This document shows positions 39,339-51,188 of a stretch of 64,000 nt of DNA, in pieces; positions within the stretch are counted from its first letter, which is position 1; each line of letters begins with the position of its first letter. The stretch lies in the NCBI GenBank assembly GCA_964422925.1, contig CAYRDC010000002.1, positions 68,991 through 132,990 on the forward strand. The letters run 5' to 3'. The notes under the pieces were generated by a model, which made no database searches, had not been told where the DNA came from, and saw only the letters and a program-made list of their open reading frames with translations. The position numbers and the translations under genes were made by a program. This DNA is from an uncultured Chitinophagales bacterium. GTDB lineage: Bacteria; Bacteroidota; Bacteroidia; Chitinophagales; S012-47.

Positions 39339-40067
39339 TCAAACAGCCGGGGTCAGGGCTTTTATTTCCGGCATTTCGTTATACAACCTTCCGTCCAGTT
39401 TTCGCCCTGCTTTTTTCTTCTTGAATCCGCCCCACTGTTTGAAGAAAAATTTAACGCCCGTCTCTTTACACTGGTCTCGGATTTCAAGCACCCATTCCTT
39501 TTTCATGGGCCTGGCCTTCGGTCCGGATTCACCGCCAACAATGACCCAATCAATGTCATGCAGATTTAAACCGGGTAATGGGCCGAGCAGCGGTTCCAGC
39601 GAAAGGAATTTTATAAATGCCCCGGTGCTTCGCAGGTAATCAATCCGCTGAATAACTTTTTGATTCTCCACGGAAACACCCATCCAGATATTTGGGGTCC
39701 ATTCCAGCAGGGGGCTGTATTCCGCCAGGATATCAGCCCGTTTGGTCAGCAACTGGAAAGTATGCATGGGGTTATCGCGCATGACCCTGAACACTTCCCG
39801 GATGTAGTCAAGCGGAACGTCTTTGTGAAACAAATCGCTCATGGAATTCACGAACACCAGTTTGGGCTTCTTCCAAGTATAGGGAATGTTAAGCGTATCC
39901 GGATGCAGGGTTAGTTTAAACCCGTTCCGGTATTTGGGCTGCCCCATTGCCTTCAGGCGTCTGGACATAATTTCCGCGTAGCAGAATTTACATCCATCCG
40001 AGATTTTCGTGCACCCTGTGGTGGGGTTCCAGGTCATTTCCGTCCATTCAATGCGGGATTGGGCCAT
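39339..40067 (-). CDS. DUF5131 / phage Gp37-Gp68-family protein (three-Cys motif)
   Basis: 242 aa. [32 protein letters not shown] is the N-terminal three-Cys cluster. ...[15 protein letters not shown]...FFFKQWGG matches the family signature as I recall it. Confidence 0.8.
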
Positions 40068-40069
40068 GA

Positions 40070-40915
40070 CTAAAAGTTTAGTGATGTTTGGGGATTGGCG
40101 TACTTCTGGACTTCTCTCCAGAATTTATTTCCTAAATTATGTTTTGAAAAAAAAGCAAGATAATAAAGAGGGAGATTTCTTTTATCAGACCTGATCTGTT
40201 GAAAGGTGTCTGTTACTTTATAACCCAATTTTTCCATATTCATTTTATAATGTCTAGCTAAGAATCGAACAAAGCTCTCATTACTTTCAATTTTTTCATT
40301 TCTCCACTCAGAATTATCAATGAACAGGTCGATTTTATCGTTTTCGCTTTCAAGGTATGTTTTATAATTGCGGTTTGCGTCCATATGCAATGCTAGAAGA
40401 ATAAGAAAGTCCATTTTAAGGACTCCCAACTTTTTAATGGTATTAAAATGAAGGTTCAATGAGTATGGATCAACAAAACAAAATGATAACACACCACTTT
40501 CTCTCGAATAGGAAGGTATTACGTTCTTAACCTCGTCAACAATTTTATTAATGTCTCCATTAAAAAATACAACGTCTTTATCGGGAAAAATACGATTGAC
40601 ACGAACCTGTAGGGCTTCAATTAAACCTTTTTTCTTCTCGCAGAAGATATATTTTGTGAATGGTACAGGGAGCTATAAAGATATTAATGGTGAACCATAA
40701 ATGATTTGGTTTGTATTTCTAATTCTGGAATAGCCACTCCCTGCAAACAAATCTAAATAGATGAGATTAGGCCATTGAGCATGCATGCTTCTTGTAAATA
40801 TTTGGCAATAATGTCCGAAAAGCTTGTATTTCTGTAGAGCCCAACTACCTACTTCAGGAGCAGGTAAACCATCGTCTTGAGCTTCGATTATTGGATTCCA
40901 ATTATCTTTAGACAT
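40070..40915 (-). pseudogene. TcmP-like (three-Cys-motif partner) protein, interrupted by one in-frame TAG
   Basis: Manual translation shows the two track ORFs (40673..40915 and 40070..40492) share one frame. They join through ...YGSPLISL*LPVPFTKYIFCEKKKGLIEAL...SRESGVLSFCFVDPYS..., and the only stop is the TAG at 40675-40673. The N-terminus contains LDLFAGSGY, a SAM-methyltransferase motif-I-like sequence. Confidence 0.7.
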
Positions 40916-40916
40916 T

Positions 40917-41288
40917 TCAATTATATTGAATCACCCCTTTAACGATCCCTTCAATTTTTACTGCTTCCGGTTTTGCCAGAATCGGGGAATATTTTGCCTG
41001 GTTTTCAGAAGCTAATATAACCTGTTTCTGCTGTATGAAAAATTTCTTGATAAGCACCATTGAATTGTACACGCACACTACCATGTCTCCGTTTTCCGCG
41101 ACCCGGCTTTTTTTGGCTATCACCAGGTCTCCCGTTTTGATTTTTGGTTCCATGGAATCCCCCCTGGCTTCGACCAGGAAAGCATCTTTTGCCGGAAACC
41201 GGATAAGCCGGGAAGCGATGGGGATACGGTCTATCGGTTTGCCGTCCAGTATGGAACCCTCCGGGCCGCATCGGGCCATGCCGTACAA
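40917..41288 (-). CDS. S24 (LexA/UmuD-type) peptidase domain protein without a DNA-binding domain
   Basis: It has the GDSMEP Ser motif and a downstream Lys (VLIKKF). A C-G dipeptide lies at the position of the UmuD Cys24-Gly25 self-cleavage site, only 6 residues from the TTG start (41288). The alternative ATG is at 41279. The gene lies 1 nt upstream of the TcmP start. Confidence 0.72.
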   Translation of the reverse strand: MYGMARCGPEGSILDGKPIDRIPIASRLIRFPAKDAFLVEARGDSMEPKIKTGDLVIAKKSRVAENGDMVVCVYNSMVLIKKFFIQQKQVILASENQAKYSPILAKPEAVKIEGIVKGVIQYN

Positions 41289-41373
41289 ATTCAGATAAAC
41301 AATCGGCTTTTCCGGTTCGGGAAGAATATCTTCTTTTATCGCGTAAAATGATTGAGTAAATTCATTAGAAAGA

Positions 41374-41392
41374 ACAAGTATATAATACTTGT
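41374..41392. promoter_or_regulatory. Candidate operator palindrome ACAAGTAT-ata-ATACTTGT
   Basis: The inverted repeat has perfect 8-bp arms. It lies in the AT-rich divergent region between the S24 operon and the Ubl cassette. Confidence 0.3.
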
Positions 41393-41522
41393 AATAACAT
41401 AAATGAGAATGCTTTATTATTTCTAGTAGTGCTATATTTACTTACATTAAACTTACGTTTAGAATTAAAATTGTAAGAGTCTGTAAAAAGAAAACGCGCA
41501 TAATAATATAGCAGATGGGTAT

Positions 41523-41552
41523 TTTGAAATAATACTTTCTTTTTTATATTTG
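41523..41552 (+). promoter_or_regulatory. Candidate Bacteroidota sigma-A promoter (-33 TTTG / -7 TATATTTG) for the Ubl cassette
   Basis: TTTG lies at 41523-41526 and TAnnTTTG at 41545-41552, with an 18-nt spacer. The -7 box is 67 nt upstream of the ATG at 41619. This is a motif match only. Confidence 0.3.
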
Positions 41553-41618
41553 CTATGTAAATACCTAATTTTAACGAGAAAAAGAAATGAATTGTATTAC
41601 CTTTTAAAAAAGAGAATT

Positions 41619-41867
41619 ATGGAAAAATCAAAGAAAGAAGAGAATTATGAAATCACAATTGATCAAAAGCACTACAAAGTTAAGGATCGGTTTATTACAG
41701 GAAGTCAAATTAAATCATTGGCTGGCGTGCCTTCAACTTATGGTGTTTGGTTAAAAGTTAAGGGACCTCACAACGATAAGGAGATAATGGACGATGAAAA
41801 GGTTGACTTAAAAGAACATGGTGCGGAGCATTTCTTTACTGGTTCAAAAACAACAACGGCAGGATGA
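41619..41867 (+). CDS. Ubiquitin-like beta-grasp protein ('multiubiquitin'-type domain, single copy) ending in -Ala-Gly
   Basis: 82 aa from the ATG at 41619: MEKSKKEENYEITIDQKHYKVKDRFITGSQIKSLAGVP...DDEKVDLKEHGAEHFFTGSKTTTAG*. The pattern (I.v....y.v....itG.qI..lAG.p...L......d..i.dde.vdl...g..F) matches my recollection of the multiubiquitin family. The stop overlaps the next gene's ATG (ATGA). Confidence 0.72.
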   Translation: MEKSKKEENYEITIDQKHYKVKDRFITGSQIKSLAGVPSTYGVWLKVKGPHNDKEIMDDEKVDLKEHGAEHFFTGSKTTTAG

Positions 41868-42247
41868 CATTCTTACCGGAGGCTGATAGGGACTATTTAA
41901 GATCGAAGGAGTATCAATTTGAGGAAATAGTTGATAGTAATAGAAATGGACTGGTAATTAGAGATTATTGTTTGCCAAAAGAAAAGTTCAATATTGAAAT
42001 AGCAGACTTATTAATATTAATACCGCCTTGCTATCCTGATGTAAAACCTGATATGTGGTATTTTTACCCCGCCATTTTTTTAACTCCCTCAAACCGGGTA
42101 ATACCACAAACAGAGGGCACTATACATTTTGGAGGTAGAGAATGGCAAAGATGGTCTCGTCATTTTCCAGCTAGTGAATGGAGAGCTGGAATAGATGGAA
42201 TACATACTTACTTAAAGAAAATAGATTCATCATTATTAAATGCTTAA
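41864..42247 (+). CDS. Prokaryotic E2/UBC-like protein (family-E-like)
   Basis: 127 aa. LILIPPCYPDVKPDMWYFYP resembles the UBC YPxxPPxxxF strand-loop. It is followed by FGGREWQRWSRHFP. The gene is translationally coupled on both sides (ATGA and TAATG overlaps). Confidence 0.72.
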   Translation: MTFLPEADRDYLRSKEYQFEEIVDSNRNGLVIRDYCLPKEKFNIEIADLLILIPPCYPDVKPDMWYFYPAIFLTPSNRVIPQTEGTIHFGGREWQRWSRHFPASEWRAGIDGIHTYLKKIDSSLLNA

Positions 42248-43632
42248 TGAGATATACATTAACATTGCAGGAGTCACATTACGAAGCACTTCGTAATCAT
42301 TTAATTCGAAAAGATCAACGAGAAAGGGTTGCTTTTATAATTTGTGGACGTTCCAAAATTGGAAGTCTTGAAGAACGATTTCTTACCCGGGAAGTTATTC
42401 TTTTTGGTGATGACAAGCTATTGATTTCTCGTCCTAATCAGGTAAAATGGGACAACTACCATTTTATAAAGATATTAAAAGATATTGAAACTAAAGGTTT
42501 TGCTGTTGTAATTATTCACAATCATCCATCTGGTTTTGAAGATTTTTCAAAAGCAGATGATGAGGGGGAATATCATCTTTTTAAATTAACTTTTAACCGT
42601 AATGGTGGAACCAGACCACATGCAAGTTTGATCATGATGCCTGATGGACTCATATTTGGTAGAGCTTGGAAAAGTGATTTGTCCAATGAACCGCTTTCAT
42701 TGATAAGAATAATCGGAAAAACATTTCAGCTATATTATCCAAACAGGTTAAAAAATTATCAGTCTCCTGAGGCTTTCCATCGACAGCAATTGGCATTTGG
42801 AAAAGCTTTAATTCAAGACCTATCTCAAATAACTTGTACAGTCGTTGGGGCAGGAGCAACGGGTTCTGCTACTGCTTTGCTATTAACCCGTTTGGGAATT
42901 GGAACTATTAATATCATAGATAAGGACATTGTTGAGAAGACTAATTTAAATCGATTGCATGGTGCAACAGTCAAGGATATAGGCAAAAGCAAAGTGGATG
43001 TCTTAAGGAAGAGTATTGAAGAAATAGGATTGGGGACGCGTGTAAATGTATCAAGTGATTGGGTTGATGCTAAATCCAGCATTGAACTTCTGAAGAGTAG
43101 TGATATAATTTTTGGTTGCACAGATGATCATGCTGGTAGAATATTACTCAATCGTTTTGCCTATTTCTATCTTACACCGGTAATTGATATGGGGTTATTT
43201 ATTAAACTTAAAGATGATTCTTCTGGAATGCAGAGTCTGCAGGGAAGGATATCTTATTTATATCCTGGAAGTGATTGCCTTTTGACAAATGGGAACATTA
43301 ATATGGATATTGCGATTGCTGAAAACCTGAAGAGAAAAAATCCGGAGCAGTATAATGACCTAAAAAATGAAAAATATGTGATAGGAGAGGGAAATCAATC
43401 TCCATCTGTAGTAACATTTACTACACAAATTGCATGCATGGCAGTTAATGAATTTCTTAACCGAATACAGAAATTTAATCCAAATGGATTTCAATCTCAT
43501 AAATTATATTTTTTTAACTTAGATGAAAAAATTGTTCCTCATAATGACAAAAAGAATTGCTGTCAAATCTGTGGCGTTGATTCAAATTGGGGTAGAGGAG
43601 ACATGGAGCCTTTCTTAGATATGGCAATGTAA
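42247..43632 (+). CDS. JAB/JAMM deubiquitinase-like domain fused to ThiF/MoeB-type E1 adenylyltransferase
   Basis: 461 aa from the ATG at 42247. There is a perfect JAMM motif H91-N-H93-x7-S101-x2-D104 (HNHPSGFEDFSKAD, nt 42517-42558). The Rossmann motif VVGAGATGSATALLLTRLGIG (nt 42847-) is followed by IIDKDIVEKTNLNRLHG and GCTDDHAGR. The C-terminus has CCQICG. Confidence 0.85.
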   Translation: MRYTLTLQESHYEALRNHLIRKDQRERVAFIICGRSKIGSLEERFLTREVILFGDDKLLISRPNQVKWDNYHFIKILKDIETKGFAVVIIHNHPSGFEDFSKADDEGEYHLFKLTFNRNGGTRPHASLIMMPDGLIFGRAWKSDLSNEPLSLIRIIGKTFQLYYPNRLKNYQSPEAFHRQQLAFGKALIQDLSQITCTVVGAGATGSATALLLTRLGIGTINIIDKDIVEKTNLNRLHGATVKDIGKSKVDVLRKSIEEIGLGTRVNVSSDWVDAKSSIELLKSSDIIFGCTDDHAGRILLNRFAYFYLTPVIDMGLFIKLKDDSSGMQSLQGRISYLYPGSDCLLTNGNINMDIAIAENLKRKNPEQYNDLKNEKYVIGEGNQSPSVVTFTTQIACMAVNEFLNRIQKFNPNGFQSHKLYFFNLDEKIVPHNDKKNCCQICGVDSNWGRGDMEPFLDMAM

Positions 43633-43643
43633 CTAATATAAAA

Positions 43644-44060
43644 ATGAATTTATACCATAAAGCGGTTGGATATCTTTACTGGAAGTTTGGACTATTCAAA
43701 TATCGAGCTAAAATGATTTTGGAGAACCCAAAACCTGAAGAAATTAAAAAAAATATAGTTTATATCGTGGGTGGTAAGAATTATGTTAAATGGGCATACC
43801 TTAAATGCCCAGATTGTTGTGGTGAAACCATTTTATTGTCACTTGTATCTAACAAAGGTCCTTCATGGAAAATAAAACAAGATAAAAAGGGACGAGTAAC
43901 GAGATATCCTTCTATTTTTAAACAAGATGGATGTAGAAGCCATTTTTTTATTATTGATGGAAATTTAGTTTGGTTGAATAATGAAAATGAAGAAGAGCAC
44001 AAAGAATATTTCAATGTTATTGGGAAGCAGGCAGATACATTTTGTTCAATAAAGCTGTGA
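43644..44060 (+). CDS. Small Cys/His protein, DUF6527-like (recollection), fourth gene of the Ubl cassette
   Basis: 138 aa. WAYLKCPDCCGETILLSL...PSWKI...RYPSIF...GCRSHFFIIDGNLVW. It starts 11 nt after the E1 gene. An alternative start is Met24. Confidence 0.6.
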   Translation: MNLYHKAVGYLYWKFGLFKYRAKMILENPKPEEIKKNIVYIVGGKNYVKWAYLKCPDCCGETILLSLVSNKGPSWKIKQDKKGRVTRYPSIFKQDGCRSHFFIIDGNLVWLNNENEEEHKEYFNVIGKQADTFCSIKL

Positions 44061-45153
44061 AGAATGAATCTAGTTCTACGATAGTTTGAGATTGGAAGGA
44101 TATGATTTCAGCCAAACTATCAAGCATATAAACAATTTCTTGTTGTTTCTCAATGTTGGGAAGTGGCATTTTAATTTGATAGAATTTATCCATTTTTAAT
44201 CTTCGCCTGTTAGTACTTCCCTCGCTCGCAGCTTTGCAGGCATTATCAAAAAGCATGGTGCGGGAAAAATAATCGAAATACTTCGCTAATACACGGTCAG
44301 TGAAACTAAAAACTGGAAAGTCGTTGGTAACTATAGCACCGTCAAGCTCGGGCGGTATTAAACCCATTGCTCCATTCCTGGCATCAATTTTTGAGATGAT
44401 AAAATAACCTTTCCTTACGATGAATTGGGCTGATCTGATTTTAGAACCTTGAATTATTTTTCTAAGTTGGACCCCTTTGTGATCCATTTTTACAGTAACC
44501 TGTTTGTATGCCTTTTCAGGAAGTATTTCAGCTGGATTCCTTTCGTGTACAAGTATTTCTCCGATTTCTATATTAGGGTATATGTTGTAATAATCGGTAA
44601 ATATGCTGTTATGTAAATTTGTATATATCCTTCCCTGCTCCCTCCTCAGCTTTTCAATTTCCTCCATTCGCTGCCGCACGGCATCCAGCTTAGCTACAAT
44701 GCGCTTTTGCTCTTCCAGTGGGGGGAGGGGGATTTCTACTGATAGGAATTTATCGGGTTTTATTTCGGTCTTTATTCCACTAGGGAAACTTTGTTTTAAA
44801 TAAAAGGAAAATTCTCTACTTCTTAAGAAGTACCATAAATATTTTAAATCGACCTTTTTGTCATCGGGATAGTAAGACGAATAATGAATGGTGGCAGCTA
44901 ATTCGCAACCAGTGTCATTGATTGCTATTGCTCCTTTCTCGACATTTATTCCCGAAATAACCAAGTCATTCGGTTGAATAGAAATTAGCTTTGTATTGGA
45001 GGTGCCATCATTGCGTATTAAAATAGTACCATCATTAAATCCAATCTTGGCAACAATTGGAATATCGCCTATAGCAACTTTGATAGCATCAGGTAGTTCG
45101 TTCCTATTATACAGAACCTCTCCCAATGGTGATTTTGGCCATCTATGCTTCAT
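44017..45153 (-). CDS. hsdS: Type I restriction-modification specificity subunit
   Basis: 378 aa with two target-recognition domains. These are separated by the conserved helices PLPPLEEQKRIVAKLDAV...IEKLRREQ and the C-terminal PLPNIEKQQEIVYMLDSL. Confidence 0.88.
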   Translation of the reverse strand: MKHRWPKSPLGEVLYNRNELPDAIKVAIGDIPIVAKIGFNDGTILIRNDGTSNTKLISIQPNDLVISGINVEKGAIAINDTGCELAATIHYSSYYPDDKKVDLKYLWYFLRSREFSFYLKQSFPSGIKTEIKPDKFLSVEIPLPPLEEQKRIVAKLDAVRQRMEEIEKLRREQGRIYTNLHNSIFTDYYNIYPNIEIGEILVHERNPAEILPEKAYKQVTVKMDHKGVQLRKIIQGSKIRSAQFIVRKGYFIISKIDARNGAMGLIPPELDGAIVTNDFPVFSFTDRVLAKYFDYFSRTMLFDNACKAASEGSTNRRRLKMDKFYQIKMPLPNIEKQQEIVYMLDSLAEIISFQSQTIVELDSFFTALLNKMYLPASQ

Positions 45154-45218
45154 TTCCCACTGACTTGTTTTGATTCTCAGTCTAAAGCCTTATATATTTT
45201 CCCACCTTCCGGGGTATA

Positions 45219-46409
45219 TCAAAAGTTCTTTGACAACTGTTCTTCAATAAACTGCTGTAATTCATCTTCACTGGGCAGTTGCAATTTGTAGCGGCTCACC
45301 AGCACATTATCCTTATCGGCCAGTGCGTAGCGCACCATCTGGGGTTTGCTTTCGGTACAAAGCAGAATGCCAATAGGAGGGTTGTCTCCTTCCTGCATCA
45401 CCTTTTCCTTGTAATACTGCAGGTAAACATTCAGTTGTCCGATGTTTTCGTGCGTAAAACCTTCGGTTTTCAGCTCGATCAATACATGACACTTAAGGAT
45501 TCGATGATAAAATACCAGATCAATGTAGTAGTATTCGTCATCTATCAGTATGCGTTTTTGGCGAGCTTCAAAACAAAACCCGTATCCCAGTTCGAGCAGG
45601 AACTGCTGTAAATGATCAATCAGGGCTCTTTCGAGTTGCGCCTCTTCAAGCGTCTCATTAATGGGTAAGTCCAGGAATTCGAACACCATCGGGTCGCGAA
45701 GTGAAAGCGCTGTGTTTTCCGTTTCTGCTTTTGTATTGGCTAACTGACTTAATTTTTCCTTGTTGGCCGATAATCCTGAACGCTCGTAGAAAAGCGAATT
45801 TATTTGCCGCTTTAATTCCCTGACGCTCCAGGTGCCTTTTATACATTCGACCTCGTAGAAAGTGCGTTTTAGATTATCCTTTATCTTAATTAGCTCAACA
45901 AAGTGTGAGAATGATAAATGCGTTATCAGTTCCGTAGGGGGAACCGAAAGCCTGCTTGGGGATTCTTTTTGTGGTAAGGGTTGTTTCCCCGTAACCTGAC
46001 TTTTTTGCAACCTTTCCCGAGATAAGCGTGCCGTTAATTCGTGGGACAGCGTCCCACGAATTACAGGGTTGTCCAATATGTGGGACAGTGTCCCGCGAAT
46101 TTGATCATTGTCCGGATTGGCAAAGAGTTCGGAGAAGCGTGGGTAGGTGTTATAAAAAATTCGGAACCTTCTTAATTCACCATCACTTACGTTTGACAAT
46201 CCTTTTCTTTTTAAAGCATTGGAAAGGCGCACAAGCAATTTATCGCCATATCGTGCCTTGTCGCTGCCGTTTTGTTCATACTCAACAATATAATAACCGA
46301 TCAACCAATTGCGTATGGTGAGCAGCATATTGATGGCGGATTTCGCCCTGCCCTGAAGCTCATTGTGAACGGCAATTATTTTGTCAGTAAGATGTTTGAG
46401 ATTCATCAT
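45219..46409 (-). CDS. DUF1016 / YhcG-family PD-(D/E)xK nuclease-domain protein
   Basis: 396 aa. The N-terminal INMLLTIRNWLIGYYIVEYEQNG... is typical of YhcG. The C-terminal YYIDLVFYHRILKCHVLIELK is a D...ExK motif. A 4-nt overlap with hsdM is present. Confidence 0.8.
   Translation of the reverse strand: MMNLKHLTDKIIAVHNELQGRAKSAINMLLTIRNWLIGYYIVEYEQNGSDKARYGDKLLVRLSNALKRKGLSNVSDGELRRFRIFYNTYPRFSELFANPDNDQIRGTLSHILDNPVIRGTLSHELTARLSRERLQKSQVTGKQPLPQKESPSRLSVPPTELITHLSFSHFVELIKIKDNLKRTFYEVECIKGTWSVRELKRQINSLFYERSGLSANKEKLSQLANTKAETENTALSLRDPMVFEFLDLPINETLEEAQLERALIDHLQQFLLELGYGFCFEARQKRILIDDEYYYIDLVFYHRILKCHVLIELKTEGFTHENIGQLNVYLQYYKEKVMQEGDNPPIGILLCTESKPQMVRYALADKDNVLVSRYKLQLPSEDELQQFIEEQLSKNF
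46036..46102. repeat. Two copies of a GTGGGACAG(C/T)GTCCC(A/G)CGAATT hairpin-forming unit inside the DUF1016 CDS
   Basis: 46036-46062 is a perfect 12-bp-arm palindrome, AATTCGTGGGAC-agc-GTCCCACGAATT. A diverged copy lies at 46080-46102. The protein shows the corresponding duplicated IRGTLSH peptide. Confidence 0.6.
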
Positions 46410-47956
46410 TCCACCATTCGCTGAATTTCTTCCATCAATTTGAAAATTTTCAGTTCTTTCTCCATGATGGAACGCACAAGTTCCTTTGGATCCCTGTATT
46501 CAAACTCGCTCTTACGGTTGGGGTTTTTGAGGTCAAGGTTCACCGTTACATTGCCTCTGTCGTCCCGGCCGATAACCTCAGCTGCCGTAACCTTCCAGGC
46601 ATGCTCGTTTTCTTCCCGTTTATTCCACCAGGCCTTTACCGGTTCAAATTCGGAGTATTGCAGGGGACGGGTTTTGCTGTATTTCCTGCGGTCTTCCGGT
46701 ACGGGTACTTCATAGTACCATATTTCCTCCGTGGGGCCACCATGTTCGAAAAACAGCAGGTTGCAGGGAATGTCGGTATAAGGTGCGAACACGCCATCGC
46801 CCAGGCGCACAATGGTGTGCAGGTTAAAGTCCTCCAAAAGTTGTTTTTTTATTCGTGCGGCCACGCCATCGGCAAACAGTGTTCCGTTGGGTACCACCAC
46901 GGCTGCCCTGCCGCCCCGGGTACCGGCTTTTTTCCTTCTCAGTTTCCGCATAATGAGCTGTAAGAAAAGCAGGGCCGTTTCGGTTGTCCGTTTGTCTTCG
47001 GGGAAATTGTTCAGGATGCCTTTTTCTTCTGACCCGCCAAAAGGCGGGTTAGTTATAATGATGTCTACCCGTTCGCTGTCGCCAATATCTTTCAGGGGTT
47101 TCCCCAGGGAATTGCGCGGGTCAATCCGGGGAAAATCCATCCCGTGGAGAAGCAGGTTCATCTGGCAAAGCAGGTAGGGCAGGGGTTTTGCTTCCCCGCC
47201 ATAAACAGACCTGGTTTGCAGGATTTTCGAATCCTCTACGGTTTTGCATTGTTTTTTCAGGTGTTCAAATGCCTGCACCAGGAAGCCGCCTGTGCCGGCT
47301 GCCGGGTCCAGAACGGTTTCACCCAGCTGTGGGTTTATCATTTCCACCATAAACTGTACAACCGGGCGGGGGGTGTAGAATTCGCCCGCGTCTCCGGCAG
47401 CGTCCCGCATTTCCTTCAGAAGGCTTTCATACAGGTGGGCTAAGGTATAAATCTCTTCATTGGAGGTAAAGTGGATGCCGTCAATTTTATTAATGACATC
47501 CCGCAGTAAATAGCCATTGATCATCCGGTTAACCACACCCCTGAAAACAGTGGCGATTACGTCTTTGCGATTTGTGCCGTTTTCGCTTTGTAATGAGCGC
47601 AGATAAAACAATAGGCCGGGACCTTCTGTGCCGTCCGGCAGGGTGCATTTTTCCTGGTTTATAAAAGCCAGCAGGTCATCGCCCGTAAGCCCCTGGTTCC
47701 GGGCCCAATCGCGCCAGCGGTAGGGCGCTTCAATGGCCGGTCTGTATGGCTTGCCGGCCAGTTGGGCTTCCGTCTCCTGCATTGTTTCCATATCATCCAG
47801 AAATTTGAGGAACATAATCCAGGTAAGCATGGGCAGCCGGTCTGCATCACCGTTCAACCCCTTGTCTTTCCGCATAATATTGCGGCAGGACTTTACGATA
47901 GCTGAGAGCCTTTGCGCAGTGGTCAGCGGTTTTTGTTCTTTTTTTCTTCTACTCAT
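46406..47956 (-). CDS. hsdM: Type I restriction-modification N6-adenine DNA methyltransferase subunit
   Basis: 516 aa. It has the HsdM N-domain, GEFYTPR, DPAAGTGGFL (motif I) and IIITNPPFGG (motif IV). Confidence 0.93.
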   Translation of the reverse strand: MSRRKKEQKPLTTAQRLSAIVKSCRNIMRKDKGLNGDADRLPMLTWIMFLKFLDDMETMQETEAQLAGKPYRPAIEAPYRWRDWARNQGLTGDDLLAFINQEKCTLPDGTEGPGLLFYLRSLQSENGTNRKDVIATVFRGVVNRMINGYLLRDVINKIDGIHFTSNEEIYTLAHLYESLLKEMRDAAGDAGEFYTPRPVVQFMVEMINPQLGETVLDPAAGTGGFLVQAFEHLKKQCKTVEDSKILQTRSVYGGEAKPLPYLLCQMNLLLHGMDFPRIDPRNSLGKPLKDIGDSERVDIIITNPPFGGSEEKGILNNFPEDKRTTETALLFLQLIMRKLRRKKAGTRGGRAAVVVPNGTLFADGVAARIKKQLLEDFNLHTIVRLGDGVFAPYTDIPCNLLFFEHGGPTEEIWYYEVPVPEDRRKYSKTRPLQYSEFEPVKAWWNKREENEHAWKVTAAEVIGRDDRGNVTVNLDLKNPNRKSEFEYRDPKELVRSIMEKELKIFKLMEEIQRMVE

Positions 47957-48000
47957 TGTCTGAATCAGGATTTGTAGAATTACAGGATTCTCTGAATTAA

Positions 48001-48432
48001 TTAATCTCGATGCAATACAGACTTTCTTGCTTTGGAATTTTTCCGCGCTGGCTTTGGATGATATTTGGGGTTAAACATGAGTTTGTATTCCAGGCTTTTA
48101 CCGCCAAAATTTATCAGCAGTCCCAATGGAAAGTCATAAGCAACTGTGTAGTTTTTTGCCTGGGCTATGTGTACATCCTCTAATGCAACCAAGGCTTTTA
48201 TTTCCACCACTACTTTGTCCTCAACAATAAAATCAGCCCTACGGGTGCCTACCTCAATATTTTCATAATAAACAGTTTGTTCCTGCTCCCTCACAAATCC
48301 CAATCCTGCTCTTTCAAATTCAATGGCAAGGCATCGTTGATAAATCACTTCCTGAAAACCGGGCCCCATGGTATTGTGCACTTTCATGGCACACCCGATT
48401 ATCGTGTATGTAATCTCATCTTTAATGGACAT
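48001..48432 (-). CDS. GxxExxY-family protein
   Basis: 143 aa. GPGFQEVIYQRCL (G-x-x-E-x-x-Y) and ...ADFIVEDKVVVEIKA form a PD-(D/E)xK-like core. Confidence 0.8.
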   Translation of the reverse strand: MSIKDEITYTIIGCAMKVHNTMGPGFQEVIYQRCLAIEFERAGLGFVREQEQTVYYENIEVGTRRADFIVEDKVVVEIKALVALEDVHIAQAKNYTVAYDFPLGLLINFGGKSLEYKLMFNPKYHPKPARKNSKARKSVLHRD

Positions 48433-48491
48433 GGAGATTCTTCATTTCAATTCTGTACATTCATCAATTCTGAGAATTCTGATTTAGACAG

Positions 48492-50888
48492 TTACGCAGC
48501 ATATAAAAGTTGCTGCAATTCTTCTAAAGCTTTTTTAAGATTATCTACTCCGCCAAAGGCATCGGCAATCTCCAGGATGTTGCCTTTATCAGATATTGGT
48601 GGTGTTTTTAAAATTTCGGTATCAATTTGTTTCAAGCCAAACTGAATGTATTTATCCAGGATTATATTTAGTATTTCACGGGCTGTTTCACTGTATTGGG
48701 CAAAATAGTCAGGCTTGTTTTTTTTCAGCAGTTCCGCTCTTTGTTTACGGGTTTTGGGTTTAAGGTCAAAGGCTACATGACAAAGAAGATCGAACGGATC
48801 GGCATCGGGTTGCTTTACAATATCGGCCAGTTGCTCAAGGGCAATACCCTTTTCCTCCAGTTTCTCAAATAAGGTTTTACGCTGTGTAAGGTCATTCCAG
48901 AAGTTCTGAAGGTCTTTAATTGTCGGAAACATAGTGCGGATTTGCTCCCGGGCATATTGCGTGTACTGTATCGTTCGAAGTTTACCGTATGCGTCAGTTA
49001 TCTGTACTGTTTCGTGGGCAATGGTTACGACCCCTTCTTCCAGATAAAATTTCCGGGGTTCTCCTTCGTCACTACCTGATGAACCACCTGGTATTTCATC
49101 GATGATGATACCTTCATCTTCAGGCGGCCCGGCAGGATATTCTTCAATTACAGTTCCTTCAATAGTTTCACCTTCATCGTCAATTTGCTCAGATGTAATA
49201 AGGGGTGGATCACCGTCAAATTCAGGATCTGCAAAATTTCGGGAGGCACTACCTGTATAATCCAGTATAGTGAAGAAAAATTTGTTTTTATCATCCCTTA
49301 CACGGGTACCCCTGCCAATGATCTGCTTAAATTCGGTCATGGAGTTCACCATCCGGAAGATAACGATGTTGCGGCAGGTAGGTACATCAACTCCTGTACT
49401 CAATAACCGGGAAGTTGTGACAATCACCGGGAATTCTTCATCAATATCCATGAAACAGCTCAGGTAACCTCTGCCTGTATCACCCTCATCAGATACAATT
49501 CGAACTACATAATCCGGGTTTTCGCGGGTTATGTCGTTATTGAGATTATTCAATTCCCTCCGCATTTGATCTGCATGTTCCTGATCAACGCAGAACACAA
49601 TGGTTTTGTCGAACCGGCCATTTTTTGTCATAAAATCGAACAAATGCCTGGCAACAGCTTTTGTACGGGGAAGGTAGGAGAGCGTGCGTTCAAAATCGGG
49701 CGTAGTGTATATTCCGTCTGGAATAGTTTGTCCATATTTATCTTTTTGTCCCTCCTGAGGACGGAAACCGGTTGCGTCCACATCCGTAACTATCCGGTGA
49801 ACAATGTAAGGTGCTAAAAACCCGTCTTCAATACCTTGCCTTAAGCTATAAGTGTAAATAGGGTTACCGAAATACGCGTAAGTATCTTTGTTGTCGTCCC
49901 TTAGAGGGGTGGCAGTCAGGCCAAGCTGCACCGCAGAGGAAAAATATTTAAGAATAATTTTCCAGTTGCTGTCTTCTGCTGCGCTTCCCCGATGGCACTC
50001 ATCCACCACAATAAGATCAAAGAAATTGCGGGGGAACCTGCGGAATAGTCCAGTACGGCTTGCGTCTTCCGCGATGGCCTGATAAGTTGAGAAGTAGATT
50101 TCACGGCTTGTTACCGGTCCGTCTTCCGAAATTAGGCACCGGGCGTCACCGAACAGGACAAAATCCTTTGAGTGGGGATCCTCTACCAGTACAGTTCTGT
50201 CAGCAAGAAAGAGCACTTTTGGCCTTCTGTATTCTCCGGTTCGGTTCCATCGATTGTGCCAGAGTTTGTAAATAATTTGGAAAGCAACAGTAGTTTTTCC
50301 TGTCCCGGTGGCCATAGTAAGCAGTACTCGTGTTTTTCCGTCAAGGATAGCTTTTACAGCCCGGTTAATGGCGATGGTTTGATAGTATCTGACTTGTTTG
50401 TCGGGAATCTTCACCAGTGGTTTCAACAAGGTTTCCCTGGTTTCTTCACTGACCGGATCAATATGGTTGAGCCGGTTCCAAAGTTCATCGGGAGTAGGAT
50501 ATGAAGCGATTTCTTTTTCAATTCCGGTGGTGAAATCGTATTCCAGTATTTGTTTTCCGTTAGTGGAATATGCGAATTGCAATCCAAGGATTTGCGCGTA
50601 TTCTTTTGCCTGTTGCATCCCATCGGCCGCATTTTTATACCTGGTTTTTGCTTCCACAATGGCTATGGGGAAATCAGTGGAATACCGAAGCAGGTAGTCA
50701 AACCGTTTTCCTTTTCTCCTTCTTGCCCTGCGTCCGATAACGATGATCTTTCCGGGAGTGAAAGTTCGTTGTTCCAGTATCTGATCGTCATTCCACCCCG
50801 CTTTCTTCAACTGGGGCACAACCTCCTTACGGCAGGTGTCTGCTTCACTATCCTGTTCGAGGATTATTATTTTCTTTTCCTCATTCAT
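48492..50888 (-). CDS. hsdR: Type I restriction enzyme R subunit
   Basis: From the ATG at 50888: N-terminal nuclease region (FDYLL...AIVEAK), helicase motifs MATGTGKT and VVDECHRGSA, ...TATP..., and a C-terminal EcoEI-R-type helical domain. Confidence 0.92.
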   Translation of the reverse strand: MNEEKKIIILEQDSEADTCRKEVVPQLKKAGWNDDQILEQRTFTPGKIIVIGRRARRRKGKRFDYLLRYSTDFPIAIVEAKTRYKNAADGMQQAKEYAQILGLQFAYSTNGKQILEYDFTTGIEKEIASYPTPDELWNRLNHIDPVSEETRETLLKPLVKIPDKQVRYYQTIAINRAVKAILDGKTRVLLTMATGTGKTTVAFQIIYKLWHNRWNRTGEYRRPKVLFLADRTVLVEDPHSKDFVLFGDARCLISEDGPVTSREIYFSTYQAIAEDASRTGLFRRFPRNFFDLIVVDECHRGSAAEDSNWKIILKYFSSAVQLGLTATPLRDDNKDTYAYFGNPIYTYSLRQGIEDGFLAPYIVHRIVTDVDATGFRPQEGQKDKYGQTIPDGIYTTPDFERTLSYLPRTKAVARHLFDFMTKNGRFDKTIVFCVDQEHADQMRRELNNLNNDITRENPDYVVRIVSDEGDTGRGYLSCFMDIDEEFPVIVTTSRLLSTGVDVPTCRNIVIFRMVNSMTEFKQIIGRGTRVRDDKNKFFFTILDYTGSASRNFADPEFDGDPPLITSEQIDDEGETIEGTVIEEYPAGPPEDEGIIIDEIPGGSSGSDEGEPRKFYLEEGVVTIAHETVQITDAYGKLRTIQYTQYAREQIRTMFPTIKDLQNFWNDLTQRKTLFEKLEEKGIALEQLADIVKQPDADPFDLLCHVAFDLKPKTRKQRAELLKKNKPDYFAQYSETAREILNIILDKYIQFGLKQIDTEILKTPPISDKGNILEIADAFGGVDNLKKALEELQQLLYAA

Positions 50889-51188
50889 CAACAATAAACA
50901 AAAATATAGTATTTCTCTCAATTTGTAGGCGTAACCATAACCACTTCCAGTAAATGAGTTATAACTGCCATGCATTGGATTAAAATAGAATGTCCTTCAG
51001 TTTGACTTTGACAGATAGGTGTGCTGAACTTTGTCATAGTACGGATTGGTAGCAAATAGACTACAATCCTTCCCGCACCGTTTATACCTCGATTGCGTAC
51101 CTGTAGGGTATGGCGTAGCTTTGAAGCCGTTGCCGGCTCAGTCCTGGCATCACGCGCTTTTTTGCCCGGACTATATCGTTATCCTTCT

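Follow-up and report, generated by a model that had tools for sequence, protein, structure and literature searches.

The stretch of DNA analysed here, referred to as the window, comprises 64,000 nucleotides from an uncultured Chitinophagales bacterium (contig CAYRDC010000002.1, positions 68,991 to 132,990). The gene in question, bubCD (42247-43632, plus strand), is an open reading frame (ORF) whose translation gives a protein of 461 amino acids, in which an N-terminal JAB/JAMM peptidase is fused to a C-terminal ThiF-type E1 domain. It is the third of four genes arranged in the order bubA (ubiquitin-like protein, Ubl), bubB (E2), bubCD and bubE. The genes are tightly packed, with an ATGA overlap between bubA and bubB, a one-nucleotide overlap between bubB and bubCD and an 11-nucleotide gap between bubCD and bubE. 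The partners of bubCD, preceded by a candidate promoter, are the following:

41523..41552, plus strand: candidate Bacteroidota-type promoter, TTTG (41523-41526) and TATATTTG (41545-41552), located by pattern positions
41619..41867, plus strand: bubA, single beta-grasp ubiquitin-like protein, 82 amino acids (Pfam Multi_ubiq, E=1.3e-16)
41864..42247, plus strand: bubB, cysteine-less E2, 127 amino acids, with S98-x-H100 and D63 (Pfam Prok-E2_E, E=6e-40)
43644..44060, plus strand: bubE, DUF6527 serine protease homologue, 138 amino acids, with S90 and H100 (Pfam DUF6527, E=7.5e-17)

The bubCD frame is open from position 42178. As a start, the ATG at 42247 fits the length of about 100 homologues (461-462 amino acids), and it shares one nucleotide with the bubB stop codon (TAATG). 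Pfam ThiF matches residues 179-424 (E=4.5e-38), while Prok-JAB, over residues 9-112, reaches 18 bits and thus falls short of its cutoff of 25 bits, so that the JAB assignment rests on the full-length match to BubCD proteins of solved structure. The best phmmer match among all Protein Data Bank (PDB) chains was the BubCD of Citrobacter sp. RHBSTW-00271 (9ea4, E=7.7e-47), with residues 7-438 aligned to 12-433 of that chain; chains of UBA4, UBA1, MccB, ThiF and MoeB matched the adenylation core only (E about 1e-11 to 1e-7). The Citrobacter protein is known from several structures (PDB 9EA4, 9EA5, 9EA8, 9EAE and 9EAV) published in the preprint of Ye, Gong, Chambers & Corbett (bioRxiv 10.1101/2024.11.21.623953), which is cited below as Ye et al. 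An AlphaFold2 model of the window BubCD, built on 74 homologues, reached a predicted local distance difference test score (pLDDT) of 91.4 and a predicted template modelling score (pTM) of 0.91, and consists of an N-terminal domain rich in beta structure, which reaches to about residue 165, and a Rossmann-type domain from about residue 175. In a Foldseek search of the PDB with this model, the top eight matches were all BubCD chains aligned over their full length (template modelling score, TM, 0.81-0.87; 0.84/0.87 for 9ea4), followed by UBA5, ThiF and MccB, which cover the E1 half only. As judged from Pfam, the model and the positions of its cysteines (33, 197, 291, 344, 397, 438, 439 and 442), the fused protein contains just one adenylation domain and lacks a CYS domain. 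The parts of BubCD discussed below are:

42247..42741, plus strand: N-terminal JAB/JAMM peptidase domain, about residues 1-165 (phmmer and AlphaFold2; residues 2-164 in the Citrobacter protein)
42754..43632, plus strand: C-terminal ThiF/MoeB/UBA5-like adenylation (E1) domain, about residues 170-461 (Pfam ThiF, invariant columns)
43276..43287, plus strand: degenerate first zinc-knuckle, C344-L-L-T347 (MoeB alignment)
43285..43401, plus strand: crossover loop, about residues 347-385, without Cys and with Tyr377 at 43375-43377 (alignment, AlphaFold2)
43558..43572, plus strand: C438-C439-Q-I-C442, second zinc-knuckle C439-x-x-C442 with the extra Cys438 (MoeB alignment)
43588..43620, plus strand: conserved C-terminal motif W448-G-R-G451-D452-x-x-P455-F-L-D458 (family alignment)

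This protein is clearly a further member of a recently described family and not a new kind of enzyme. We consider that ORF 42247-43632 encodes the BubCD of a Type I Bub (formerly '6E.1' or DUF6527) ubiquitination-like operon lying in a low-GC defence island, with a mechanism to be deduced from that of Citrobacter; the probability of this reading is put at roughly 0.85. The features of Type I Bub found at the locus are the JAB-E1 fusion, the complete JAB site, a crossover loop without Cys and with Tyr, a Multi_ubiq Ubl, a Prok-E2_E protein with Ser-x-His and Asp, and a DUF6527 protein. The same order of four genes occurs in nearly all of 80 related genome loci, and also in two others, L082 and L083. 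One feature differs: the main text of Ye et al. states that all Type I operons encode a BubA-BubB fusion, and here the two genes form ORFs of their own that overlap in ATGA. The fusion is not truly defining, however, because Table S1 of the same preprint lists many split operons, with a separate Ubl, a separate E2, a 'DUB+E1 fusion' and DUF6527, as Type I Bub, and because bubA and bubB are split in 66 of 79 related loci.

Conservation was assessed in 324 aligned full-length relatives of BubCD, namely 114 close homologues, the 80 genome loci and cluster representatives; about 495 clusters (50% identity) match BubCD at E<=1e-30.

The bubA gene starts at ATG 41619 in a frame that is open from TTG 41550, and the candidate promoter lies about 67 nucleotides upstream of this ATG. 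The consensus of Bacteroides promoters is TTTG/TAnnTTTG (-33/-7), and TTTG and TATATTTG are read as candidate -33 and -7 elements. The PDB matches of BubA are Ubls of the multi-ubiquitin-domain kind, from a protein of E. coli ZDHYS365 and from a Methylobacterium BilA. BubA ends with FFTGSKTTTAG followed by the stop codon, that is, at the conserved C-terminal Gly of the family, and this terminal motif aligns with TTEG in 79 loci; homologous BubA ORFs have 82-88 amino acids (82 in L082). The stop codon of bubA and the start codon of bubB, which overlaps it, coincide exactly with the TTEG|NSFLP junction of fused relatives, and BubB itself begins with MTFLP. Among the 79 related loci with a readable junction, BubA ends at Gly in 39, carries a tail of 1-7 residues in 27 and is fused to BubB in 13.

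BubB of the window matches Citrobacter BubB (9eae_C, E=3e-12), with an identical QRWSRH segment, and its Ser98 and His100 are kept in 80 of 80 loci and Asp63 in 79 of 80. In BubE, for which the precomputed Pfam labels give the name 'BubE' to PF20137, Ser90 and His100 are kept in 78 of 78 loci. Ye et al. describe BubE as a protease of the Ser/His type by which conjugates are erased in cells. BubE also contains a cluster of cysteines (C55, C58, C59 and C97). Its zinc-finger region reads C55-P-D-C58-C59, against C-P-C-G-C in close relatives, so that one Cys is shifted by one position; this shifted Cys and the extra adjacent Cys of BubCD (C438-C439) occur in the same genome.

BubCD's N-terminal domain carries a complete metalloprotease site. 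Nucleotides 42517-42558 translate to HNHPSGFEDFSKAD, corresponding to H91-x-H93-x7-S101-x2-D104, and the upstream acidic residue, Glu26, falls within QRERVAF (codons: E26 42322-42324, H91 and H93 42517-42525, S101 42547-42549, D104 42556-42558). The E/H/H/S/D set is intact in 318 of the 324 relatives. In experiments described by Ye et al., the peptidase of Citrobacter BubCD is active, binds Zn via H91, H93 and D104, needs E28 and D104, and cuts the BubA-BubB pre-protein directly after the Gly of the Ubl. Peptidase activity of the window protein is accordingly a prediction made by homology.

The C-terminal domain has the nucleotide site of E1 enzymes: G201-x-G203-x-x-G206 (42847-42864), R236 (42952-42954), which phmmer aligns with the adenylation-site Arg of Citrobacter (R227 in the paper), and D293 (43123-43125). 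All of these residues are invariant in the 114 closest relatives. In the AlphaFold2 model the crossover loop comprises two short helices, at 353-364 and 366-374, and after them a coil of low confidence, the pLDDT dropping to about 69 across residues 371-390; this layout agrees with the published description of the Citrobacter loop. No Cys is present in residues 345-388 of the translation. Tyr377 is kept in 323 of 324 relatives and aligns with the Tyr of Citrobacter 'ERGYITG', which is Phe in the Y370F structure 9eav. Ye et al. describe the Citrobacter E1 domain as a ThiF/UBA5-like homodimer with all adenylation residues and no catalytic Cys, in which Y370 is the sole invariant residue of the crossover loop and adjoins S333, H335 and D299 of the E2 in the E1-E2 complex; Y370F abolishes conjugation, and the pathway is proposed to use oxyester intermediates, first on Tyr and then on Ser. 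By this analogy Tyr377 is the predicted E1 nucleophile of the window BubCD.

A preliminary description of the window, made from its letters and ORF translations, had already recognised a JAB-E1 fusion with a complete HxHx7Sx2D motif at nucleotides 42517-42558 and an acidic residue upstream in QRERVAF, a probably active peptidase, intact nucleotide-binding elements and the lack of a Cys-bearing crossover insertion. The homology, conservation and structural data agree with each of these points. The last of them, the puzzling one, is explained by the published Bub mechanism: an E1 without a catalytic Cys is a defining trait of the Bub family, which the description had missed, and not a gap. The missing catalytic Cys and the protease fused to an E1 are thus already known as hallmarks of the Bub pathway.

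The following sequence of events can be proposed by analogy with Citrobacter. The ThiF-like domain, probably as a homodimer, would bind ATP and BubA and adenylate the C-terminal Gly of BubA; Tyr377 would then accept the Ubl as an oxyester, without any Cys, and pass it to Ser98 of BubB, aided by His100 and Asp63. BubB would move the Ubl onto lysines of target proteins, and BubE, using Ser90 and His100, would strip the conjugates. The JAB domain would be a Zn-dependent peptidase specific for the bond after the terminal Gly of BubA. In relatives with a BubA-BubB fusion or with BubA tails of 1-7 residues it would mature the Ubl; in the operon of the window it might hydrolyse C-terminally blocked or mis-linked BubA in a back-up or editing role, or act on another substrate.

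Several points speak against assigning the locus to Type I Bub with this mechanism. Identity to the characterised Citrobacter BubCD is only about 25%, and ATP-dependent BubA conjugation and BubA-X peptidase activity have been shown, according to Ye et al., for the Citrobacter and E. coli homologues only. The Tyr oxyester was deduced by these authors from the loss of function of Y370F and from modelling and was not trapped, and an adduct of BubA and BubCD is still present on gels of the Y370F mutant. Phage protection has so far been reported for no Bub operon. Finally, since BubA of the window ends at Gly, the sole demonstrated role of the JAB domain, pre-protein cleavage, is without a substrate here.

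The last point bears on the alternative that survives best, namely that of the preliminary description, which had regarded JAB as a true deconjugase (DUB) opposing the E1 in the same polypeptide, the fusion regulating a cycle of conjugation and deconjugation intramolecularly. As BubA is made mature (TTTAG followed by the stop codon), there is no pre-protein whose cleavage could be the job of JAB in this operon. BubA ends at Gly in 39 of 79 related operons as well, yet the JAB motif is intact in 84 of 84 members of the subclade to which the window BubCD belongs. Nor is the JAB half relatively less conserved there: the ratio of JAB to E1 identity is 0.83 in this subclade, against 0.72 and 0.85 in other branches, so that relaxed selection on JAB in mature-BubA operons is not seen by this measure in the subclade, and both observations point to a retained function. 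Moreover, work cited by Ye et al. shows that in CBASS and Bil systems the JAB peptidases do remove conjugates. A deconjugating role here is therefore possible, and to that extent the mature state of BubA is in favour of the preliminary description.

On the other hand, opposing activities under tight intramolecular regulation are not what the Citrobacter homologue displays, where JAB processes the pre-protein and BubE removes conjugates. Ye et al. report that the wild-type JAB did not stop the build-up of BubA conjugates in vitro or in cells and that D104A left conjugation unchanged; they conclude that the pre-protein may be 'primarily or solely' the target of the peptidase, and Type II Bub operons have no JAB at all. 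In addition, both JAB-degenerate relatives with a readable operon (L065 and P0101/L083) have a mature standalone BubA, which suggests that JAB is dispensable once BubA needs no processing. We therefore regard JAB as an intramolecular antagonist of the E1 as doubtful, though worth keeping in view. A variant may be put forward just as tentatively, in which JAB of mature-BubA operons would be a second eraser or editor with a linkage specificity of its own, distinct from BubE, and not a maturation protease. If so, it might cut peptide-linked, N-terminal or ester-linked BubA adducts, and the system would possess two deconjugases, which would contradict the published suggestion of a role confined primarily or solely to the pre-protein.

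The decayed JAB sites of the two relatives are of different kinds. BubCD of L065 (L065:1601-2998) reads VYSASDN with a deletion (site residues RYAIT), while that of P0101/L083 (L083:3001-4410) reads R-Y-H and S-H-I-N, equivalent to H91R and D104N (site residues ERHSN). Both proteins retain Tyr377 and a four-Cys zinc site, and both operons encode a standalone BubA that ends exactly at TTEG.

The E1 half of the window BubCD contains a partly degenerate version of the zinc site known from MoeB. With E. coli MoeB added to the family alignment, its ligands C172, C175, C244 and C247 fall on C344, T347, C439 and C442, so that three of the four positions are Cys and the equivalent of C175 is Thr. The preliminary description had seen a single Cys in place of the first CxxC and a surviving CCQICG cluster near the C-terminus, and both are present; its conclusion that only half of the motif was kept does not stand, as three of the four ligands remain. 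The alternative of placing C344 on C175 of MoeB ('PGSDC' against 'PCYRC') was rejected on the basis of the profile alignment and of the family CxxC at 344/347. Over the family, the states at 344/347/439/442 are CCCC (168 sequences), CTCC (78), CSCC (6), CCHC (9) and Cys-less (about 61). CTCC, the state of the window BubCD, is confined to its mainly Bacteroidota subclade, and C344 is invariant in the 114 closest homologues. Citrobacter BubCD is one of the Cys-less minority, having Thr and Asp at 344/347 and lacking a C-terminal CxxC in the alignment, and the zinc site of the E1 domain is not discussed in the Bub preprint.

It is probable, as judged from the alignment, that C344, C439 and C442 are a remnant of the MoeB/ThiF structural zinc site, whose fourth ligand was lost (Thr347) in the Bacteroidota subclade. 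Zinc may still be bound via the three Cys and a neighbouring carboxylate or thiol at position 438, and in the subclade as a whole the E1 zinc site may be made up of three Cys together with an acidic residue or Cys at this position. Of 84 three-Cys sequences, 79 have E, D or H at position 438 (80 when C is counted), against 77 of 168 four-Cys sequences, a correlation that is not phylogenetically independent, the three-Cys sequences being essentially one clade. A compensating role of residue 438 as the fourth ligand is conceivable but speculative. Cys438 of 'CCQICG' itself is unique to the window BubCD (1 of 114).

The loss of the fourth ligand also invites the idea of a conventional thioester E1, in which Cys344, freed from zinc duty by the loss of its partner at 347, would have become the catalytic nucleophile of the subclade; the invariance of C344 among the closest homologues and its position at the entrance of the crossover loop would fit such a role. 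We hold this to be very improbable. In the alignment C344 falls on C172 of MoeB, a structural zinc ligand, and not on the positions of catalytic Cys; it strictly co-occurs with C439 and C442. The Citrobacter enzyme, though Cys-less, is active according to Ye et al. Tyr377 is still invariant, and the E2 that would receive the Ubl has Ser, His and Asp and not Cys.

Beyond the second CxxC lies the motif W-G-R-G-D-x-x-P-F-L-D, which is kept in the four-Cys, three-Cys and Cys-less branches alike. Its Gly451 occurs in 152 of 168, 84 of 84 and 61 of 61 sequences of these branches, respectively, and its Asp452 in 164 of 168, 84 of 84 and 52 of 61. Confidence of the AlphaFold2 model is low over this motif, the role of which is not discussed in the available sections of the preprint; it could act as a partner-binding tail like that of UBA5.

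The partly kept zinc site also bears on a possible function in a sulfur-carrier or biosynthetic system, with an adenylyltransferase like those of MoeB/ThiF, CysO-Mec+ or MccB, in which the Ubl would be thiocarboxylated or otherwise modified and JAB would free the carrier. ThiF and MoeB are indeed the best named NCBIfam and Pfam matches, and the public annotation reads 'ThiF family adenylyltransferase'. The scores for the ThiF and MoeB equivalogs are, however, far under the cutoffs (79 bits against 275 for the best, NCBIfam ThiF), none of the four operon proteins reached any cutoff in the NCBIfam search, and Thr at the position of MoeB C175 leaves three Cys where four would be expected. The operon encodes an E2 and a DUF6527 protease, its Ubl belongs to Multi_ubiq and not to ThiS/MoaD, and no sulfurtransferase, rhodanese or cofactor/thiamine family was matched by the four operon proteins in Pfam. 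Neighbouring ORFs with a family match encode S24, DUF5131, TcmP and restriction-modification or nuclease proteins, and the fold match over the whole protein is BubCD. A biosynthetic function of this type has accordingly very little chance of being correct.

Least probable of all is a Type II CBASS, Pycsar or 6A-MBL (Cap2/Cap3) or Bil system, which the defence-island setting, the PADLOC 'E1-E2' (Cap2-type) models (about residues 170-305, E down to 2e-17) and the NCBIfam 6A-MBL cap2_3 model (52.8 bits) might suggest, but these matches are limited to the common adenylation core and lie far under their cutoffs (320 bits for cap2_3), no cyclase, effector or MBL gene was found nearby among the window ORFs by family searches, the E2 is a separate gene of the Prok-E2_E family, and a Bil E1, according to Ye et al., is a tandem IAD-AAD with a CYS domain and a separate JAB, against one adenylation domain and no CYS domain here. 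A CBASS reading of the PADLOC result was rejected likewise, since only the Cap2-type models match; PADLOC has no Bub-specific model.

The surroundings of the operon differ in base composition from the rest of the window. Its GC content is 0.34, against 0.50 for the window, and it lies within a stretch of about 40000-51000 in which GC is 0.31-0.45 over most of the length, compared with about 0.50-0.58 in flanks that carry housekeeping-type genes; hsdM (about 46500-48000, GC about 0.50-0.53) is an exception. This pattern suggests a horizontally acquired defence island. Downstream, genes for HsdS, a YhcG/DUF1016 nuclease, HsdM, a PDDEXK_3 protein and HsdR follow on the other strand; upstream are an ORF for an S24 peptidase, two fragments of TcmP and DUF5131. 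The neighbouring features are:

40917-41288, minus strand: S24 (LexA/UmuD-like) peptidase ORF, 123 amino acids, without a helix-turn-helix (HTH) domain, a stop codon lying directly upstream of the linker
44017-50975, minus strand: type I restriction-modification system (HsdS, HsdM, HsdR), with mosaic GC of 0.36-0.53
45219-46409, minus strand: YhcG/DUF1016 PDDEXK nuclease gene, interrupting the type I restriction-modification block
48001-48432, minus strand: PDDEXK_3 gene, interrupting the same block

The S24 ORF was considered as a conserved regulator of the operon and rejected, as it has no HTH and a stop directly upstream and adjoins none of the 80 related operons; it probably represents a repressor gene that was truncated, lying at the margin of the low-GC island. 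The gene for TcmP, the three-Cys-motif partner protein, is broken into two fragments (40070-40492 and 40673-40915, minus strand), one for the N- and one for the C-terminal part, and is probably a pseudogene. An intact DUF5131 gene (39339-40067, minus strand) adjoins these fragments, and DUF5131 is the usual partner of TcmP. No CapH/CapP or WYL regulator was found in the window by Pfam and NCBIfam searches. Regulators of the CapH/CapP type are reported for 31% of Bub operons. Genes resembling them are present upstream of two related operons, as an HTH_3+Peptidase_M78 fusion gene about 2 kb away (L082:372-1442) and as a Peptidase_M78 gene (L083:21-803).

The flanks of the operon are not conserved in relatives, and restriction-modification or BREX genes recur nearby (e.g. 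L001, L006, L040, L082 and L083). Homologues of BubCD are carried on 110 plasmids, 55 of them conjugative. A phage origin of bubCD was rejected, as no homologue was matched among 50,697 phage records. The context fits a mobile defence or stress cassette. The position of a Bub operon beside a type I restriction-modification system in an acquired island supports, without proving, the proposed role of these operons in defence or stress response.

What is of further interest at this locus is modest, and consists of a mature-Ubl operon with an intact JAB, a three-Cys zinc site of the E1 and a C-terminal motif kept family-wide. As its Ubl needs no processing, the locus offers a clean setting in which to look for further functions of JAB, and the protein samples a branch whose MoeB-type zinc site is partly degenerate, the only solved structure being from the minority Cys-less branch.

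Among known systems, Bil (Bacterial ISG15-like) and Type II CBASS Cap2/Cap3 resemble the operon as bacterial E1/E2/JAB conjugation machineries located in defence islands. Bil has a separate JAB, an IAD-AAD-CYS E1 and thioester chemistry, and Type II CBASS an E2-E1 fusion (Cap2) that conjugates the cyclase, without a Ubl gene; DUF6527 is found in neither. E. coli MoeB and ThiF and human UBA5 are minimal homodimeric E1-like enzymes that share the Rossmann-type adenylation domain, GxGxxG, Arg finger, DxxD and crossover loop, and zinc knuckles of the MoeB type occur at homologous positions in the window BubCD. These enzymes have no JAB fusion; in MoeB and ThiF the zinc ligands are four Cys and the crossover loop is short and contains Cys (MoeB C187), and UBA5 has a catalytic Cys250, whereas the crossover loop of Bub E1 is about 30 residues longer, with Tyr replacing Cys.

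The similarity to Citrobacter BubCD extends to the two-domain architecture, the length (461 amino acids in the window, 458 in Citrobacter), the full-length TM of 0.84-0.87 and the active-site residues: E26, H91, H93, S101 and D104 correspond to E28, H91, H93, S101 and D104, R236 to R227 and Y377 to Y370. The operons likewise share a Multi_ubiq Ubl, a Ser/His/Asp E2 and a DUF6527 Ser/His protease. In Citrobacter, BubA consists of three beta-grasp domains fused to BubB and needs JAB cleavage, whereas BubA of the window has one domain and is a separate ORF ending at Gly; the zinc positions 344/347 are Thr and Asp without an aligned C-terminal CxxC in the former, and three of four MoeB ligands are kept in the latter.

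Closest to the operon of the window are those of Bacteroidetes bacterium GWF2_33_16 (L002) and GWF2_40_14 (L001), which are listed in Table S1 of Ye et al. as Type I Bub with a 'DUB+E1 fusion' and separate Ubl and E2. They differ in the end of BubA (TTEG, against TTAG in the window), in Glu at position 438 (Cys in the window), in the CPCGC of BubE (CPDCC in the window) and in the flanking genes. Their BubCD proteins are 65% identical to that of the window, and the operons share with it the C-x-x-T and C-x-x-C zinc state, a separate BubA (84 amino acids) ending in Gly, overlaps of the ATGA type and the order of the four genes.

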